This document shows, in pieces, positions 54,814 to 60,536 of a stretch of 64,000 nucleotides of DNA. The DNA comes from Deltaproteobacteria bacterium. GTDB lineage: Bacteria; Desulfobacterota; GWC2-55-46. Each line of letters starts with the position of its first letter. Within the stretch, counting starts at the first letter, position 1. Location: positions 200,679 through 264,678 of the forward strand of contig JACRNL010000001.1 of the NCBI GenBank assembly GCA_016234935.1. Direction: 5' to 3'. Made by a program: the position numbers and the translations under genes. The notes below the pieces were generated by a model. The model saw only the letters and a program-made list of their open reading frames with translations, was not told the origin of the DNA and did not search any database.

Positions 54814-55093
54814 TTTCTCAGGACTGGGCGCAGGGGTTTTATCCCCGCACGGCCCTGATTAGTCTAAATTTAACACACAAAAAATATTATGGCAAGCGCA
54901 AAATGCGCCTGCCGACGTCAAATATAAGGAAACGGAAGCGGTTTAAAGAATTAACGTTTTTTGGCCGCCTGCGGCGGGGCAAAGCCTAATGGTGCGTCAT
55001 TTAAGACTTTAGCGCGCGCAGCGCCCTTTTTTTTCAAAAAAGGCAAGCGTGCCTCTTGTGCAATTGAAATCTTACGCTATACTTTTCACGACC

Positions 55094-55819
55094 ATGAAAA
55101 AAGGCCCGGTTAAATTAATCCAAGCCGCCCTGACGGAAAGGCTTCACATGGACCCGCGCAAAAATCCTGTGCGCGTCGCTGTCGAAGACAACTGCGTGGT
55201 CATGGAGGGCGTTGTTGACGGCATCGCCCTGAAAAAAAGGGCGCTCCTTATCGCCATGAGCATGAAAGACGTGGAGGGCGTCATTGACCGGCTCAAGGTC
55301 AGGCCGTCCATGAACATGACCGACGCCGAGATACAGGCGCACATATACAACGCGTTTGCCGAGGATCCCGCCCTTGCATGTTTGAAGGTTGAAACCGCCG
55401 GCGCGGTGGTTGACCTTGAAGGCACGGTCACTTCACTTACGCACAAGCGTCTTGCCGGCACGCTCGCGTGGTGGGTGCCCGGGGTCGCCGACGTTATAAA
55501 CTCCATCGAGGTCGTCCCTCCTGAAGAGGACTCCGATGACGAGGTCGTGGACGCCGTAAAACTCGTCCTTGAAAAAGACCCCATCGTTCACCTCGGCTCA
55601 ATTAATGTGTCCGCGGCCAACTGGATAGTCACCTTAAGCGGCGCAGCCCCCGGCGAAACGGAAAAAATCGCCGCCGAGGAGGATGCGCTGTATGTCTGGG
55701 GCGTAAACGAGGTCGTAAACGCAATCGCCGTGCTCAGGCCCGCCGCCCGGCCCGCGGCGAAAGAAATATTCCCCGCGCGCCCCTACCGTCCGCACCGTCT
55801 GCCTTTAAAAAAACCTTGA
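55094..55819 (+). CDS. BON domain-containing protein (OsmY-like, three BON repeats)
   Basis: Repeated pattern V.V.V.DG.V.L.G.V...K..A......V.GV..V.N.I.V. No clear signal peptide. Start trimmed to MKKGPV. Confidence 0.6.
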   Translation: MKKGPVKLIQAALTERLHMDPRKNPVRVAVEDNCVVMEGVVDGIALKKRALLIAMSMKDVEGVIDRLKVRPSMNMTDAEIQAHIYNAFAEDPALACLKVETAGAVVDLEGTVTSLTHKRLAGTLAWWVPGVADVINSIEVVPPEEDSDDEVVDAVKLVLEKDPIVHLGSINVSAANWIVTLSGAAPGETEKIAAEEDALYVWGVNEVVNAIAVLRPAARPAAKEIFPARPYRPHRLPLKKP

Positions 55820-55923
55820 CCAATCCCTCGCGCCCAGTTAAATTATCAAATAAATTATCAAATTATCCCTGCGCTTGAATCCGTTTTTGCGCGGCAATAA
55901 AAATATCGTTTCACGGGAGCGGT

Positions 55924-56484
55924 TTGCCGATGAAGATTGAAAGAATAAAAAAGATAGCCATCAAAAAGGTGGCACCCGAACTGAAGAGCCACAACGGCCT
56001 GTTCGGCGAAGGATGCACCGGAAGCCGCTGCGGCGACGAATGCTGCCAGTGGGGCTGCGACGTTGACCTTGCCACTTTAGACCTCATCATGAAGCACAGA
56101 GACCTCGTCGAGCCGCTTGTAGGCAGGAAGATAGAAAAATGTTTTAAGACCGAACTCGTCAAGGACGACGACTACATAGGCGGCGCGTTCCGCGAGACCG
56201 TCGTAAGAAAAGCGGACAAACGATGCGCCTTCCATTTAACGGGCGGCACAAGGGGCTGTTCCCTTTTTTTCCTATGGGCGGCAAAAGGCATCTCAAAGAG
56301 GATCGTTCCGACCATCTGCCGGGTCTACCCCATCACATGGCACAGGGGCAGGCTTTTCCTGGACTCTCCCATCATCGAGACCTGCAAATGCCTCGACAAG
56401 CCGCCCACAGGCAAAAAACCCCCTTCCCTCCTCCAGACTCAGAGGAAGGAGGTAAGGGCGCTGTTTAACATAAAGGAAAAGTAA
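55924..56484 (+). CDS. Cysteine-cluster protein, YkgJ-like (PF03692-like zinc/iron-chelating domain)
   Basis: CTGSRCGDECCQWGC cluster followed by RCAFHL...GCSLFF...ICRVYPITW, as in the C..CG.CC...C.FL...C.IY..RP..CR.YP family. Confidence 0.45.
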   Translation: MPMKIERIKKIAIKKVAPELKSHNGLFGEGCTGSRCGDECCQWGCDVDLATLDLIMKHRDLVEPLVGRKIEKCFKTELVKDDDYIGGAFRETVVRKADKRCAFHLTGGTRGCSLFFLWAAKGISKRIVPTICRVYPITWHRGRLFLDSPIIETCKCLDKPPTGKKPPSLLQTQRKEVRALFNIKEK

Positions 56485-56640
56485 AGGCAAGACAGGCAGA
56501 TACTCTCTTCCTTCTGCCCTCGCATGTTCCCCGATAGAAACATTCGAGGGCAGGCTATAGCGGGGGTTGGGGTGGGGGTATCTATAAATCATAACTGATC
56601 GCAACTCTGAAAAAAAGCTCTCCTGTCAATGGGAGGGTAT

Positions 56641-57297
56641 TCACTTCTTCTCCAGATGCTTCTTGAACCACTTCGCGGCATGGCCTGAGACCTGTTCAAG
56701 GGTTCCGGGCTCTTCAAAGAGGTGGGACGCGCCCGGCACGATAACAAGATCCTTTTCGCATTTTAAAAGCTCAAAGGACGACCGGTTAAGCTCTATGACG
56801 ATGTCGTCGTGGCCGCCCACGATAAAGAGCGTCGGGGCCTTCACCCTGCCGAGGTATTCATTGGCGAGGTCCACCCTTCCCCCGCGCGAGACTATCGCGC
56901 CGATCTTCGTTTTTACATTTACCGAGGCCGCAAGCGCCGCCGCCGCGCCCGTGGAGGCGCCAAAGTAGCCTATGCGGAGTTTTTTAGTCCGTTCGTCGTC
57001 CATGAGCCAACCGGTTGCGGATTCAAGCCTCTTGATAAGCAGGGTGATGTTGAAACGGGTCTGATAATCCGCATCCTCTTCTTTCGTGAGCAGGTCCATC
57101 AGCAGCGTGCCAAGCCCGGCCTTGCGAAGCTCGCCGGCGACGTAGTTGTTCCTTGGACTGAGCCTGCTGGAGCCGCTGCCGTGGACGAAAAGGACGACCC
57201 CCCTCGCGTCCGGCGGCACGCCGAGCGCGCCTTCGAGCGTGATTCCTGCTCCGGCGTCTATCGCTACAATCTCCTCTTCCCTGGTTAGAAGTTTCAT
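56641..57297 (-). CDS. Alpha/beta hydrolase (dienelactone hydrolase family)
   Basis: GVVLFVHGSGSSR, nucleophile elbow GASTGAAAAL, and GGHDD/H catalytic residues. Confidence 0.75.
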   Translation of the reverse strand: MKLLTREEEIVAIDAGAGITLEGALGVPPDARGVVLFVHGSGSSRLSPRNNYVAGELRKAGLGTLLMDLLTKEEDADYQTRFNITLLIKRLESATGWLMDDERTKKLRIGYFGASTGAAAALAASVNVKTKIGAIVSRGGRVDLANEYLGRVKAPTLFIVGGHDDIVIELNRSSFELLKCEKDLVIVPGASHLFEEPGTLEQVSGHAAKWFKKHLEKK

Positions 57298-57373
57298 GTT
57301 TTTTACCCCTCAGAAAAGAACGCGGAGCGCGGTTTTTCAGCCTGATGCCAAAATCCCTTGCCCCGCTAAAGAG

Positions 57374-57487
57374 CTACTTTTTCTTGCAACCGCACTCGGC
57401 CGCTTTTTTGTTGCACCCGCTGCACACCCCGTTTTTGATTGCCGCGCCGCACTTCGCGCAAGGCGAACATCCGCACGTCTGACACAT
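57374..57487 (-). CDS. Unannotated 37-aa cysteine-rich small protein (metallothionein-like)
   Basis: MCQTCGCSPCAKCGAAIKNGVCSGCNKKAAECGCKKK, 9 Cys in 37 residues. Strong Shine-Dalgarno GGAGGTG 5 nt upstream of the ATG. A hairpin with a T-rich tract lies downstream. Below the 60-aa cutoff of the ORF track. Confidence 0.45.
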   Translation of the reverse strand: MCQTCGCSPCAKCGAAIKNGVCSGCNKKAAECGCKKK

Positions 57488-57631
57488 ATAATCACCTCCT
57501 CGATTACGGGAGATTACCTCCCTGTTTTAAAGGTCATCCATATGCCAAGTATGCCCCCTGAAACGCGGTTGTCAAGACGCGATACGGCCGCCACGCGCAA
57601 CGCCGCTCTTTCGTTTTTTCCATCAGCCCAT

Positions 57632-58243
57632 TCAGCCTGCCAGCTTCTTAGCTATCCCTGCTACGTGCCTGCCCTGAAAGCGCGCCATGGCAAGCTCGTT
57701 TTCGCTCGGCATCCTCGACCCGTCGTGGCCCGCGATGGTTGACGCGCCGTAGGGGCTGCCGCCGCTTATCTCGGCCACGGTCATCTGTCTTGCCTCGGAA
57801 TACGGCATGCCGACTATCACCATGCCGTGGTGCAGGAGCGTAATGTGAAAGCTCAGGATGGTTGACTCCTGCCCGCCGTGCTGGGTGGCAGACGAGGTAA
57901 ATACGCTGCCGGCCTTGCCGATAAGCGAGCCCTTCATCCACAGCCCGCCCGTAGCGTCAAGAAGCGCCCTCATCTGCGCGGTCATGTTGCCGAAGCGCGT
58001 CGGCGTGCCGAAGATTATCGCGTCTGCCGTCGCAAGGTCGTCAACAGTGGCAACGGGAAGGTGCGCGAACTTTTTCCTGGCTTCAAGCGCGTTCATCTTT
58101 TTAAGCACTTCCTCCGGAAGCGTCTCCTCGACCTGAAAGAGCTTGACCTGGGCCCCATTTACCTCCCGCGCACCCTCGGCTACCGCCTCGGCCATCTTCC
58201 AGATATGCCCGTACATACTGTAAAAGACTACATGAACTTTCAT
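57632..58243 (-). CDS. wrbA: NAD(P)H:quinone oxidoreductase, type IV (WrbA flavodoxin-like)
   Basis: [21 protein letters not shown] and a flavodoxin-like fold, consistent with WrbA. 203 aa. Confidence 0.85.
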
Positions 58244-58346
58244 ACGTAACTCTCCTTTTTTTAAAGGTTATCTGTCATCCGCCGTCAGTTATCGGCAAAA
58301 GACACAAACAATCCCTACTGATAACCGTCAACGGATAACCGTCTCT

Positions 58347-59735
58347 TTACAGCTTATTAAGTCCGTTCATGGCCGCCTCTTTGTAAGCGTCGGAGAGGGT
58401 CGGGTAATTAAAGACAACGTCCTTGAAGTAGTCCACCGTGCCGCCGTAGTTCATGACAGCCTGGCCTATGTGGATAAGCTCCGACGCCTTCTCCCCGACG
58501 ATGTGCACGCCGAGGAGCGCCCGCGTGTCGCGGTTGAAGATGAGCTTCAACATGCCGTGCAGGTCGCCGATAATCTGCCCCCTTGCGACATCCTTGAAAT
58601 AAGCGCAGCCTACCTCGTAGGAAACCCCTTTTCTGGTGAGGCCCTCCTCTGTCTCGCCGACCATTGATATCTCAGGTATGGTATAGACGCCAAAGGGCAT
58701 GAAGGCCGTATACGCGCAGGTCTGTCCCTCTTTCTGAAAGGCGTGGCAAACGGCCCGCCTGCCCTGCTCCATGGACGTCGAGGCAAGCGACGGAAAGCCG
58801 ATGACGTCTCCCACGGCGTAGACGTGCGGCACGCTTGTCTGAAAGCAGTCGTTCACGCTGAGGAGGCCGCGGTCGTTGCAGGTGATGCCTATGGCCTCAA
58901 TGCCGAGCGTGCCGGTGTTGCCCACGCGGCCCATGGTGTAGAGGAGCTTTTGAGAGGTTACGGCCTTGCCGCTTTTAAGACGGGTCTCAACCTTTTGAGG
59001 GCCGGTGACTTTGATGTCAATGACCTCTTCGCCGAGCCGCATGGTAACGCCGGATTGCCTCATCCGGTAGACGAGGCTCGTCACTATCTCCTCGTCGGCA
59101 AATGGCAGGAGCCTCTCCTTTTTCTCCACAAGCGTCACCCTCACCCCAAGGGCTGCGAAGATGCAGGCGTATTCGCAGCCGATCACGCCGCCGCCGACGA
59201 TGGCGAGGTTTTGCGGGATAATATCGAGGCCGAGGATGGTGTCGCTGTCGTAGATGTGCTCTTTGTCAAACGGCACGTCCGGCGGTCTGGCCGGTTTTGT
59301 GCCGGTGGCTATGATTATGCAGTCCGCGGCAAAGCGCAGGATGGTATTGTCTTTTTTTCTTATCGAAAGGCTGTTTTTGTCGATAAAGGAAGCGTCGCCG
59401 TAGATTATCTCCACGTTGTTCCGGCTGAACTGCTCTATTACGACCTCCATCTGCTTTCTGATTACCTCGGTCTTTTTATACATCAGCTCCGAGAGCGTCA
59501 CATCCCTGCCGAGCGTGAACTGAAAGCCGAACACCGCCCTCTGCCTGAAGCCCGCGAGGTAAAGGGCCGTTTCACGCAGCGTCTTGCTCGGCAGTGTGCC
59601 GGTATGGAGCCCGGCCCCGCCGATATAAGGCTGACGCTCGATGATGGCCACCTTTTTGCCGAGCTTCGCGGCCTGTATGGCGGCCTTTTCACCGCCTGGG
59701 CCTGAGCCTATGACGAGGATGTCGTATTTTTTCAT
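58347..59735 (-). CDS. sthA: Soluble pyridine nucleotide transhydrogenase / FAD-dependent pyridine nucleotide-disulfide oxidoreductase (SthA-like)
   Basis: YDILVIGSGPGGEKAA, GGAGLHTGTLPSK and C-terminal HVYAVGDVIGFPSLAS...FNYPTLSDAYK closely track E. coli SthA. Confidence 0.75.
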   Translation of the reverse strand: MKKYDILVIGSGPGGEKAAIQAAKLGKKVAIIERQPYIGGAGLHTGTLPSKTLRETALYLAGFRQRAVFGFQFTLGRDVTLSELMYKKTEVIRKQMEVVIEQFSRNNVEIIYGDASFIDKNSLSIRKKDNTILRFAADCIIIATGTKPARPPDVPFDKEHIYDSDTILGLDIIPQNLAIVGGGVIGCEYACIFAALGVRVTLVEKKERLLPFADEEIVTSLVYRMRQSGVTMRLGEEVIDIKVTGPQKVETRLKSGKAVTSQKLLYTMGRVGNTGTLGIEAIGITCNDRGLLSVNDCFQTSVPHVYAVGDVIGFPSLASTSMEQGRRAVCHAFQKEGQTCAYTAFMPFGVYTIPEISMVGETEEGLTRKGVSYEVGCAYFKDVARGQIIGDLHGMLKLIFNRDTRALLGVHIVGEKASELIHIGQAVMNYGGTVDYFKDVVFNYPTLSDAYKEAAMNGLNKL

Positions 59736-59749
59736 TCTTCCTTTAGGTG

Positions 59750-59898
59750 GATTGCTGAAAAACCCTACTTTTATACAGGCTGCTCAAAAAGCCCCTGCTA
59801 CTAGGCGACGAGGAACGAAGAATGAGACGTGCTTTTGGGCACGTCGCAATGATGAGCGACGAAGGCAACGACGTAGATGGGGCGTTTTCAGCAGCCTG
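59750..59898. repeat. Composite ~150-bp repeat element, family E copy 2
   Basis: Begins 15 bp upstream of the sthA ATG. Same architecture and orientation as 26751-26900. Contains a plus-strand mini-ORF (MRRAFGHVAMMSDEGNDVDGAFSAACWAA) with an AGGAA Shine-Dalgarno. Confidence 0.7.
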
Positions 59899-59912
59899 TT
59901 GGGCGGCCTGAC

Positions 59913-60536
59913 TCATTCGAGCTTGAAGAGGTTATCCGGCAGAGTCAGGTTGATCTCCAGATCGGTCATCAAAACGTCTTCCGTCAAGCCGCCCTTTGCG
60001 TCGTAAGCCATGACGCGAACCGGCAGAAAACTCCTCTTGTCAAGCCAGAGTATGTAGGCGTTCGTGCCAGCCATGGAATAACCGTAGGCGCCGAGAATCT
60101 TTACCTTGACAGTATCCCTTTCGCCTGATTTTTCCTCGGCGAGCACCTCTATGGAGCCGTGGGCTTGAAGCTTGTCAACGTTCTTTAGAAGCGCGCCTAT
60201 GTCGGACTCGGCGATCGTGTGGCCCTTTGAGCTCGTGATGAGCCTGTTGTCCGGACTGAGCGTTACGACGAACGACTTCAAGGCCCCAAGGGGCTGAAGA
60301 CGCGCCTCTTTTCTAACGGGGTCATAAAGCAGAACCGCCCCCGCGTGAGGCTCCACGAAGTTCATGCGCACGTAACCAGGCGTCTTATAAAAATATTTTA
60401 TCACCTCGCGCCCGCCGTCCGACCTTGAATCGAGGGTGACGGCATAGGTCTCCACATTTCTAAAATTATCCATTGCGATGGAAACTATGCCTTTGACGGA
60501 GATATTCAAAGCGAGCCAGAAAAAAAGGGGTAGCAT
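59913..60536 (-). CDS. Hypothetical secreted protein (LolA-like lipoprotein-carrier fold?)
   Basis: N-terminal hydrophobic signal-like segment. Weak resemblance to the outer-membrane lipoprotein-sorting family. No firm motif. Confidence 0.35.
   Translation of the reverse strand: MLPLFFWLALNISVKGIVSIAMDNFRNVETYAVTLDSRSDGGREVIKYFYKTPGYVRMNFVEPHAGAVLLYDPVRKEARLQPLGALKSFVVTLSPDNRLITSSKGHTIAESDIGALLKNVDKLQAHGSIEVLAEEKSGERDTVKVKILGAYGYSMAGTNAYILWLDKRSFLPVRVMAYDAKGGLTEDVLMTDLEINLTLPDNLFKLE

Follow-up and report, generated by a model that had tools for sequence, protein, structure and literature searches.

In the 64,000-nucleotide stretch of DNA analysed here (contig JACRNL010000001.1 of the Deltaproteobacteria bacterium assembly GCA_016234935.1, positions 200,679 to 264,678; hereafter the window) we found a minus-strand frame of 37 codons that is a genuine protein-coding gene. 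Its product, a peptide with nine cysteines, belongs to a family without earlier description, for which there is no curated model and no paper was found. Judging from the sequences of its members, this family is almost certainly one that holds metal ions, and the peptide may be among the smallest autonomous metalloproteins. The gene is placed as follows:

57377 to 57487, minus strand: coding sequence of the nine-cysteine peptide, ATG start, 37 codons, translation MCQTCGCSPCAKCGAAIKNGVCSGCNKKAAECGCKKK
57374 to 57376, minus strand: TAG stop codon of the peptide gene

Frame and translation had been proposed in an initial annotation made from the DNA letters, and both were confirmed by reading the strand and by the listing of open reading frames (ORFs). 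Residues 1-34 of the peptide form the conserved core and KKK a short basic tail. Cysteine accounts for nine of the 37 residues (24%, as had been counted before), which is a higher share than in any other of the window's 587 ORFs with 30 aa or more (runner-up 17%), and the cysteine motif occurs in the window a single time. The gene fills a gap of its own between a WrbA-type gene and a gene for a hydrolase of the dienelactone hydrolase (DLH) type; this gap, earlier given as roughly 330 bp, measures 334 bp, and both neighbours were confirmed with Pfam.

An exhaustive phmmer search over 1.84 billion representative proteins found 21 clusters at E<1e-3 (best 2.7e-7). Apart from P0014, P0006, P0010 and P0016, these clusters share the core M-C-x2-C-G-C-x-P-C-x2-C-G-x7-C-x2-C-x6-C-x-C. 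A profile search of 5.8 billion proteins gave at least 143 clusters, all of them named 'hypothetical protein' or unnamed, and none of the 120 relatives listed had a precomputed Pfam domain. The exact window peptide was absent from a collection of 15 billion proteins, and a word-index search with the peptide padded to 40 aa gave one relative, 97% identical, on a Logan contig with the same synteny. The expectation that standard annotation would miss the gene was not borne out, as members are already called in JGI, ENA, Logan and NCBI assemblies, always as 'hypothetical protein'. Viral contigs and plasmids yielded no relatives, and there is thus no sign of carriage by mobile elements. A literature search by sequence, by cysteine motif and by topic gave no description of the family. 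A paper on Asgard viruses with the words 'nine cysteines' deals with PacI-like nucleases, the peptide is absent from the ORM2a proteomics paper and its supplements, and passages from the DeepMetagenome metallothionein paper contain nothing on this family.

Conservation of the cysteine pattern in relatives was a point on which the initial annotation had let its case depend, and the pattern proved to be kept. All nine cysteines with their spacing are present in at least 112 independent database proteins. A pattern scan over one genome per species brought up 237 stretches that encode relatives, and the best 80 of these were fetched; together with the window and its close relative L001 they make up 82 loci. 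An intact ORF with all nine cysteines was present in 82 of these 82 loci, a test that is partly circular as the fetch pattern had fixed the first four cysteines. In an alignment of 18 sequences the nine cysteines, M1, G6 and G14 were invariant and there were no indels in the core. An alignment of 68 sequences had C2, C5, C7, C10, C13, C22, C25, C32, C34 and G6 invariant, and M1, P9, G14, I17, V21 and G24 at least 90% conserved. Surface positions between the cysteines vary freely.

Some members lose cysteines. P0006 shows C2Y and C10Y, P0010 and P0016 lose C32 and C34 by an apparent frameshift, and P0119 is without C5 and C7. Probably these losses arose as errors of sequencing or assembly, or the copies are decaying; such members could reveal which cysteine residues are dispensable. 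A requirement for an N-terminal cysteine after removal of the methionine was considered and rejected, as three members carry N-terminal extensions of 8-9 residues, with Y/H-C.

The hosts of the 80 fetched loci were labelled Deltaproteobacteria/Thermodesulfobacteriota in 29 cases, Planctomycetota in 20 (Phycisphaerae, Brocadiia, Pirellulales), Nitrospirota in 11 and Omnitrophota in seven, the remainder being Patescibacteria (2), DPANN archaea (2), Gammaproteobacteria (2), others (4) and unclassified (3). The titles of 79 of them carried the tag of a metagenome-assembled genome, and the last one is also an environmental genome bin. Odd taxonomic placements may be binning errors; an Actinomycetota-labelled peptide, for example, is nearly identical to those of two Deferrimicrobium-type loci (L051, L054). 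That identity to the window peptide stays at 60-89% across bins of many bacterial phyla, and even of archaea, makes the family noteworthy.

The nucleotide sequences point in the same direction. Over the 82 loci the mean pairwise differences at first, second and third codon positions were 0.21, 0.16 and 0.55, so that third positions are about three times more variable than first or second ones. The ratio of nonsynonymous to synonymous substitution rates (dN/dS) had a median of 0.14 over 555 pairs, and the start codon was ATG in every locus. Among syntenic relatives the Shine-Dalgarno sequence and the coding sequence align and both flanks diverge. Codon-position pattern, dN/dS and diverging flanks show that selection acts on the protein and not on an RNA or a leader.

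The core of the 112 proteins is made up of 26.5% Cys and 13% Gly, with no Phe, 0.1% Tyr, 0.4% Trp and no His. AlphaFold, run on the 68-sequence alignment, predicted a tiny fold with confidence, at a mean predicted local distance difference test score (pLDDT) of 85.3 and a predicted template modelling score (pTM) of 0.53; in this model residues 2-5 make a turn and 17-18/21-22 a beta-hairpin. Compared with PDB sequences, the profile placed residues 9-32 on the zinc ribbon of eL37 in a weak match (E 0.05), in which C10, C13, C22 and C25 fall on the CxxC motifs of eL37, the zinc ligands of that protein. Foldseek found nothing significant in the PDB; its top entries, non-significant at E ~4-5, were zinc ribbons of aIF2-gamma and of archaeal ribosomal proteins of 43-46 residues. 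The window peptide matched no Pfam or NCBIfam model even at E<=10. A scan of 68 members gave sporadic sub-threshold matches to Zn_Ribbon_1 in three (best E 0.0044), to zf_C2H2_13 in eight, to a '4-Cys prefix' domain in three and to Metallothio_Euk in two (E 0.44). The phmmer cluster P0014 (138 aa), the weakest class of match, turned out to be unrelated; it repeats a unit of about 36-37 aa (KPCVKCGV.DRYK.G.CK.C...) three times in tandem and matches the central zinc-ribbon part only, which supports residues 8-29 as a generic ribbon module.

The tails behind the core are of two kinds. Among the 112 strict-core proteins, 43 have a short basic tail (K, KK or KKK), which is the type of the window, and 67 a net-acidic one. 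The most extreme acidic tails comprise 33-56 residues, carry a net charge of -23 to -41 and finish with a tip that contains an aromatic residue (...DW, ...DY, ...YN, ...YS). Members with an acidic tail include the proteins P0106, P0115, P0117, P0121, P0022 and P0039 and the loci L082-L090; where the surroundings of acidic-tail genes were inspected, each gene was isolated, with gaps of about 130-520 bp, and the contexts were unrelated to one another.

Around the coding sequence we identified the following candidate signals for transcription and translation:

57493 to 57499, minus strand: Shine-Dalgarno sequence GGAGGTG, followed by a 5-nt spacer (ATTAT) and the ATG
57548 to 57575, minus strand: sigma-70-type promoter-like site TTGACA-16 nt-CATACT, a consensus match with 10/12 positions matching
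57508 to 57522, minus strand: small inverted repeat GGGAG-GUAAU-CUCCC in the 5' untranslated region (UTR), listed by the scanner on the plus strand
57312 to 57366, minus strand: terminator-like element with a 7-bp G+C-rich stem (GCGGGGC/GCUCCGC), a structured 31-nt loop and then GUUCUUUUCU

The near-consensus Shine-Dalgarno sequence with its spacer was read as it had been described, and an SD-like core lies at -18..-4 in 70 of the 82 loci. One promoter-like site was found in the upstream region of the window gene, compared with 0.2 in shuffled sequences. Its position inside the gap between wrbA and the peptide gene suggests that the gene is transcribed as a unit of its own, with about 50 nt of 5' UTR. 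Across the family, sites with at least 10/12 matches precede the gene in 29 of 81 loci, compared with 5 of 133 control segments; 25 loci have a perfect TTGACA, mostly 50-100 nt 5' of the ATG. No operator shared across lineages was seen in these promoter regions, in which the hexamers alone recur. The peptide gene is probably a separate, well-expressed transcription unit in many genomes, as far as such sequence signals allow a prediction.

Downstream of the gene the RNA was predicted to fold with -29 kcal/mol (z = -2.6; 3 of 200 shuffles fold equally well). The hairpin with a T-rich tract that had been noted behind the stop codon was borne out in part only: on folding, the stem stands directly before GUUCUUUUCU, but a strict terminator scanner made no call. 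The terminator-like element is kept in L001 only. In the predicted fold of 57305-57374 (minus strand) the stop region of the peptide gene (GCUCUUUA) pairs with UGAGGGGU, which includes the Shine-Dalgarno sequence of the downstream hydrolase gene, so that translation of the hydrolase could depend on the intergenic structure. On the other side of the gene, the 3' arm of the inverted repeat could pair with the GGAGG of the Shine-Dalgarno sequence 10 nt downstream and might form a translational switch; this repeat was found in the window and, imperfectly, in L001 only. No Rfam family was found in 56000-59000.

The neighbouring genes in the window are the following:

57632 to 58243, minus strand: WrbA-type NAD(P)H:quinone oxidoreductase, the upstream neighbour (Pfam FMN_red, Flavodoxin_1, Flavodoxin_2; flavodoxin-like fold)
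56641 to 57297, minus strand: alpha/beta hydrolase of the dienelactone hydrolase type, the downstream neighbour (Pfam DLH, 24 bits)
58347 to 59735, minus strand: SthA-like pyridine-nucleotide-disulfide oxidoreductase, further upstream (Pfam-supported)
55049 to 55819, plus strand: triple-BON (OsmY-like) protein
55924 to 56484, plus strand: Cys-cluster protein with a weak, sub-threshold match to DUF3109
59913 to 60536, minus strand: DUF1571/MucB_RseB-like protein

An apparent island of stress genes at 55049-60536 (BON, Cys-cluster, DLH, WrbA, SthA-like and DUF1571/MucB_RseB-like genes) surrounds the peptide gene, and putative nusA and rimP genes, named from window translations, lie just before it. 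The label 'YkgJ-like' given earlier to the Cys-cluster protein was not sustained, as the sub-threshold DUF3109 match is its only one.

A redox and stress neighbourhood, already suggested for the window, was also seen elsewhere in a census of neighbours over the 82 loci, made with our own ORF calling and clustering and with jackhmmer for named families. No neighbour family is universal. Among the 150 nearest neighbours the commonest Pfam families were FMN_red/flavodoxin (WrbA type; 11), Sod_Fe (5), DLH (5), HisF (5) and Rubrerythrin (4). WrbA is the most frequent neighbour of the family, lying within 51-710 nt of the peptide gene and always on the same strand in 13 of the 82 loci (upstream in 10, downstream in three); these loci show three or more arrangements and come from bins of two phyla, one of the bins being labelled Pirellulales. 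In a reverse test with the 80 closest WrbA homologues (71-79% identity, on metagenome contigs) the peptide gene adjoined three, or 2 of the 61 with adequate flanks, and WrbA was rejected as an obligate partner. Synteny with wrbA, which was to be checked according to the initial annotation, therefore recurs and is not obligate; the link is recurrent, non-random and facultative, and seems to reflect shared stress or redox physiology rather than a complex.

Other stress genes recur as well. An Fe/Mn superoxide dismutase (SOD) gene is near the peptide gene in seven loci, including Omnitrophota- and Pirellulales-labelled bins, a metallophosphoesterase-rubrerythrin fusion stands directly upstream in 3-4 loci, and in three loci of a Deferrimicrobium-type lineage (L051, L061, L070) the peptide gene is preceded, at 44-45 nt and on its own strand, by a CsbD/YjbJ-like general-stress gene. 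This CsbD neighbour came to our attention through P0126 (annotated YjbJ) and P0009, which are chimeric read-throughs from the upstream region into the peptide. Altogether 25 of the 82 loci have WrbA, SOD, the rubrerythrin fusion, CsbD or the BON gene of the window lineage within 2.5 kb. In the sthA-wrbA-peptide-DLH arrangement, DLH is downstream in eight loci and is syntenic within the window lineage only. Other tight co-directional neighbours are heterogeneous, for example MFS and RmuC genes.

The reading that we favour, tentatively and as somewhat less than probable, is that of an autonomous and abundant mini-protein of the metal-thiolate type, which would act as a buffer for a soft metal and react to oxidants by way of its thiolates. 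The gene, with transcription signals of its own, would encode a cytoplasmic metalloprotein of about 3.7 kDa from a family whose members have about 35 residues. C10-x2-C13-G and C22-x-G-C25, around the hairpin I17..V21, might form a Cys4 site of the zinc-ribbon or rubredoxin type, and the N-terminal C2-x2-C5-x-C7 together with the C-terminal C32-x-C34 might close onto this ribbon as a second site. Such an arrangement would take up two metals (4+4+1 Cys) or three metals (M3Cys9, as in the metallothionein beta-domain), with Zn(II) as the simplest case or another soft metal in its place. Oxidation of the thiolates would then lead to release or exchange of the metal, and this response would tie the peptide to the adjoining stress genes (WrbA, Fe/Mn-SOD, rubrerythrin, CsbD). 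The lack of an obligate partner, the variable surface and, in many genomes, the near-consensus, housekeeping-type promoter-like site suggest that the peptide acts alone as an abundant buffer. Buffering would explain the nine immutable cysteines, the variable surface, the absence of a fixed partner, the metallothionein-like composition and the proximity of stress genes.

Several observations weigh against this reading. With 60-89% identity the family is conserved more rigidly than typical metallothioneins, and the rigid conservation of its non-cysteine residues and the ordered, zinc-ribbon-like AlphaFold model are unlike typical fast-evolving metallothioneins. All labelled hosts belong to lineages that are commonly held to be anaerobic, so that an oxygen-labile iron centre would fit at least as well as a zinc buffer. 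The association with stress genes is found in about 30% of the loci, is partly inherited within lineages and is weak when viewed from WrbA (3/80). Half of the family carries long hyper-acidic tails that the buffer model does not explain, and neither metal-efflux genes nor sensors of the ArsR/MerR/CsoR type were enriched among the nearest and second-shell neighbours.

A bolder version, which may be true and which on balance we doubt, makes the window peptide the first member of a family that is either ancient or has spread widely by transfer, and in which some 35 residues hold a single trinuclear M3Cys9 cluster or a mixed Zn/Fe thiolate cluster, built around the zinc-ribbon hairpin. The peptide would then serve as a redox or metal buffer or as a minimal electron carrier in anaerobes that include bins labelled as candidate phyla radiation (CPR) and DPANN.

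The main rival explanation is a miniature iron redox protein, which we consider rather unlikely. It would hold one or more Fe(Cys)4 sites of the rubredoxin or desulforedoxin kind, or a small Fe-S cluster on C7-x2-C10-x2-C13...C22, and would pass electrons from NAD(P)H flavoproteins (of the WrbA and of the SthA or thioredoxin reductase types) to enzymes that detoxify oxygen or peroxide, such as rubrerythrin. The presumably anaerobic character of the labelled host lineages would suit such a carrier, and the neighbours fit too, with WrbA-type flavoproteins adjoining on the same strand in the 13 loci, Pyr_redox_2 leading the 122 second-shell genes with nine occurrences, and the rubrerythrin fusions directly upstream. 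CxxCG knuckles are common to rubredoxins and zinc ribbons, the size is near that of desulforedoxin (~36 aa), and the genes' own promoter-like sites would suit the abundance expected of a carrier. However, no rubredoxin (PF00301), desulforedoxin or ferredoxin model or PDB structure matched the family, there is no rubredoxin-like aromatic core, and nine invariant cysteines are odd for Cys4 sites. Members with a basic tail do not resemble the usual acidic carriers, and no flavoprotein or acceptor gene is obligate beside the peptide gene. The [4Fe-4S] ferredoxin motif CxxCxxCxxxCP was likewise rejected, as C7xxC10xxC13 is followed by G-x7-C, with no Cys at +4 and no Cys-Pro.

We regard as improbable that the peptide is a structural zinc-ribbon micro-protein in which the cysteines hold the fold only and a charged tail binds the ribosome, RNA polymerase or a nucleic acid, as a regulator or accessory factor. 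The weak similarities in sequence and fold to zinc ribbons of ribosomal proteins and aIF2-gamma would be in line with this, as would the Lys-rich tail of the window protein and 43 other members and the presence of the family in bins labelled as CPR and DPANN, which have reduced genomes. Genes for tryptophanyl-tRNA synthetase (TrpRS) and tRNA-guanine transglycosylase (TGT) lie 37-63 nt away on the same strand in the Patescibacteria-labelled loci, and housekeeping neighbours (hisF, ssb, rho, prfA) are common. But about half of the family is hyper-acidic, and tails of opposite charge argue against a common electrostatic target. In addition, the surface positions between the cysteines vary freely, nine cysteines exceed the need of a structural Cys4 ribbon, and no partner among informational genes is conserved across lineages.

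Less credible still is a classical metallothionein that is induced by a metal sensor and sequesters excess Cd, Zn, Cu or As. Its composition and CxC/CxxC motifs would fit, and nine cysteines agree with the arithmetic of an M3Cys9 cluster. In one Woesearchaeota-labelled locus (L030:821-2053) a gene for an ArsP_1-type permease (Pfam E 4e-35) follows directly after the peptide stop without a gap; it is the sole locus with a possibly metal- or metalloid-related transporter in an apparent operon position. Against such induction, no metal sensor was found among nearest and second-shell neighbours, and the E1-E2 ATPase family occurs in 2 of the 122 second-shell genes and is not among the top nearest-neighbour families. 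The promoter-like sites resemble constitutive sigma-70 types and have no cross-lineage operator, ordered fold and high conservation do not suit an inducible metallothionein, and the best model match, to Metallothio_Euk, is the insignificant one in 2 of 68 members.

That the frame encodes no functional protein at all, but is a cysteine-codon-rich leader or attenuator for the hydrolase, a bacteriocin or other precursor of a ribosomally synthesised and post-translationally modified peptide (RiPP), or a chance ORF, has next to no likelihood left: it is short and lies 76 nt upstream of the DLH gene, with intervening structure that can pair with the Shine-Dalgarno sequence of the latter, but the intact frame in 82 of 82 loci rules out chance, and conservation of the non-cysteine residues and of the spacing (dN/dS 0.14) across unrelated contexts effectively refutes the whole idea. 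An attenuator was rejected as no downstream gene is constant, most of the 82 loci differing in the gene that follows. A precursor of a RiPP or bacteriocin was rejected as families of maturases, transporters or immunity proteins show no enrichment in the 150 nearest and 122 second-shell neighbours (Radical_SAM 2/122), and as there is no leader or signal sequence, the protein beginning with M-C and the conserved core at residue 1-2.

Small proteins have poor coverage in family databases, and the frequent near-consensus promoter-like site suggests that this one may be abundantly expressed. If the peptide is a metal or redox buffer in microbes of anoxic habitats, it would be a missing piece of metal and oxidative-stress homeostasis in lineages known from metagenomes only. 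If it holds an M3Cys9 or mixed cluster as buffer or carrier, it would represent a new class of prokaryotic metallothionein or redox protein without a cultured model organism, and if it is a structural zinc ribbon only, it would still be a new conserved micro-protein family that merits a database entry. A length of 35 residues makes chemical synthesis feasible, so that metal, stoichiometry and redox activity are directly testable. In metalloprotein design, too, the peptide could find use as a minimal scaffold.

In comparison with known systems, the family shares with C4 zinc ribbons two CxxC knuckles (C10xxC13 and C22xxC25) that flank the beta-hairpin 17-18/21-22, although every match to zinc ribbons (eL37, aIF2-gamma, Zn_Ribbon_1) was below significance. 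Unlike these, it adds five invariant cysteines (C2, C5, C7, C32 and C34) wrapped around the ribbon, and it is a free-standing protein of 35 residues and not a domain. With rubredoxin and desulforedoxin it has in common the very small size, the CxxCG knuckles, the anaerobe-labelled hosts and neighbours of the rubrerythrin, SOD and NAD(P)H-flavoprotein types, but it is without an aromatic core and has more than twice as many cysteines.

The likeness to metallothioneins proposed in the initial annotation held for composition, which fits the descriptive definition (<10 kDa, >15% Cys and here 26%, CxC and CxxC motifs, aromatic residues and His essentially absent, with no Phe and no His in the core), but the family belongs to none of the known metallothionein families. 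The bacterial metallothioneins SmtA/BmtA bind a Zn4Cys9His2 cluster on a zinc-finger-like fold. Like them, the family is small, prokaryotic, presumably cytoplasmic, Cys-rich and aromatic-poor, with nine cysteines. It differs in having no His in 112 cores, another cysteine spacing and far higher conservation, in the absence of an SmtB-type repressor among nearest and second-shell neighbours, and in giving no match to PF02069 (Metallothio_Pro), with the window peptide at E<=10 or with 68 members at E<=1. The beta-domain of animal metallothioneins forms an M3Cys9 cluster. The family resembles it in having nine cysteines in about 30-35 residues, CxC and CxxC motifs, Lys-rich flanks and hardly any aromatic residues or His, but shows no homology to it (Metallothio_Euk, E 0.44) and differs in its hairpin, which is predicted with confidence, and in the conservation of Gly, Pro, Ile and Val positions. 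Taken by its sequence features, the family would thus represent a type of small Cys-rich metalloprotein that resembles zinc ribbons in its centre and metallothioneins in its composition and cysteine arithmetic.

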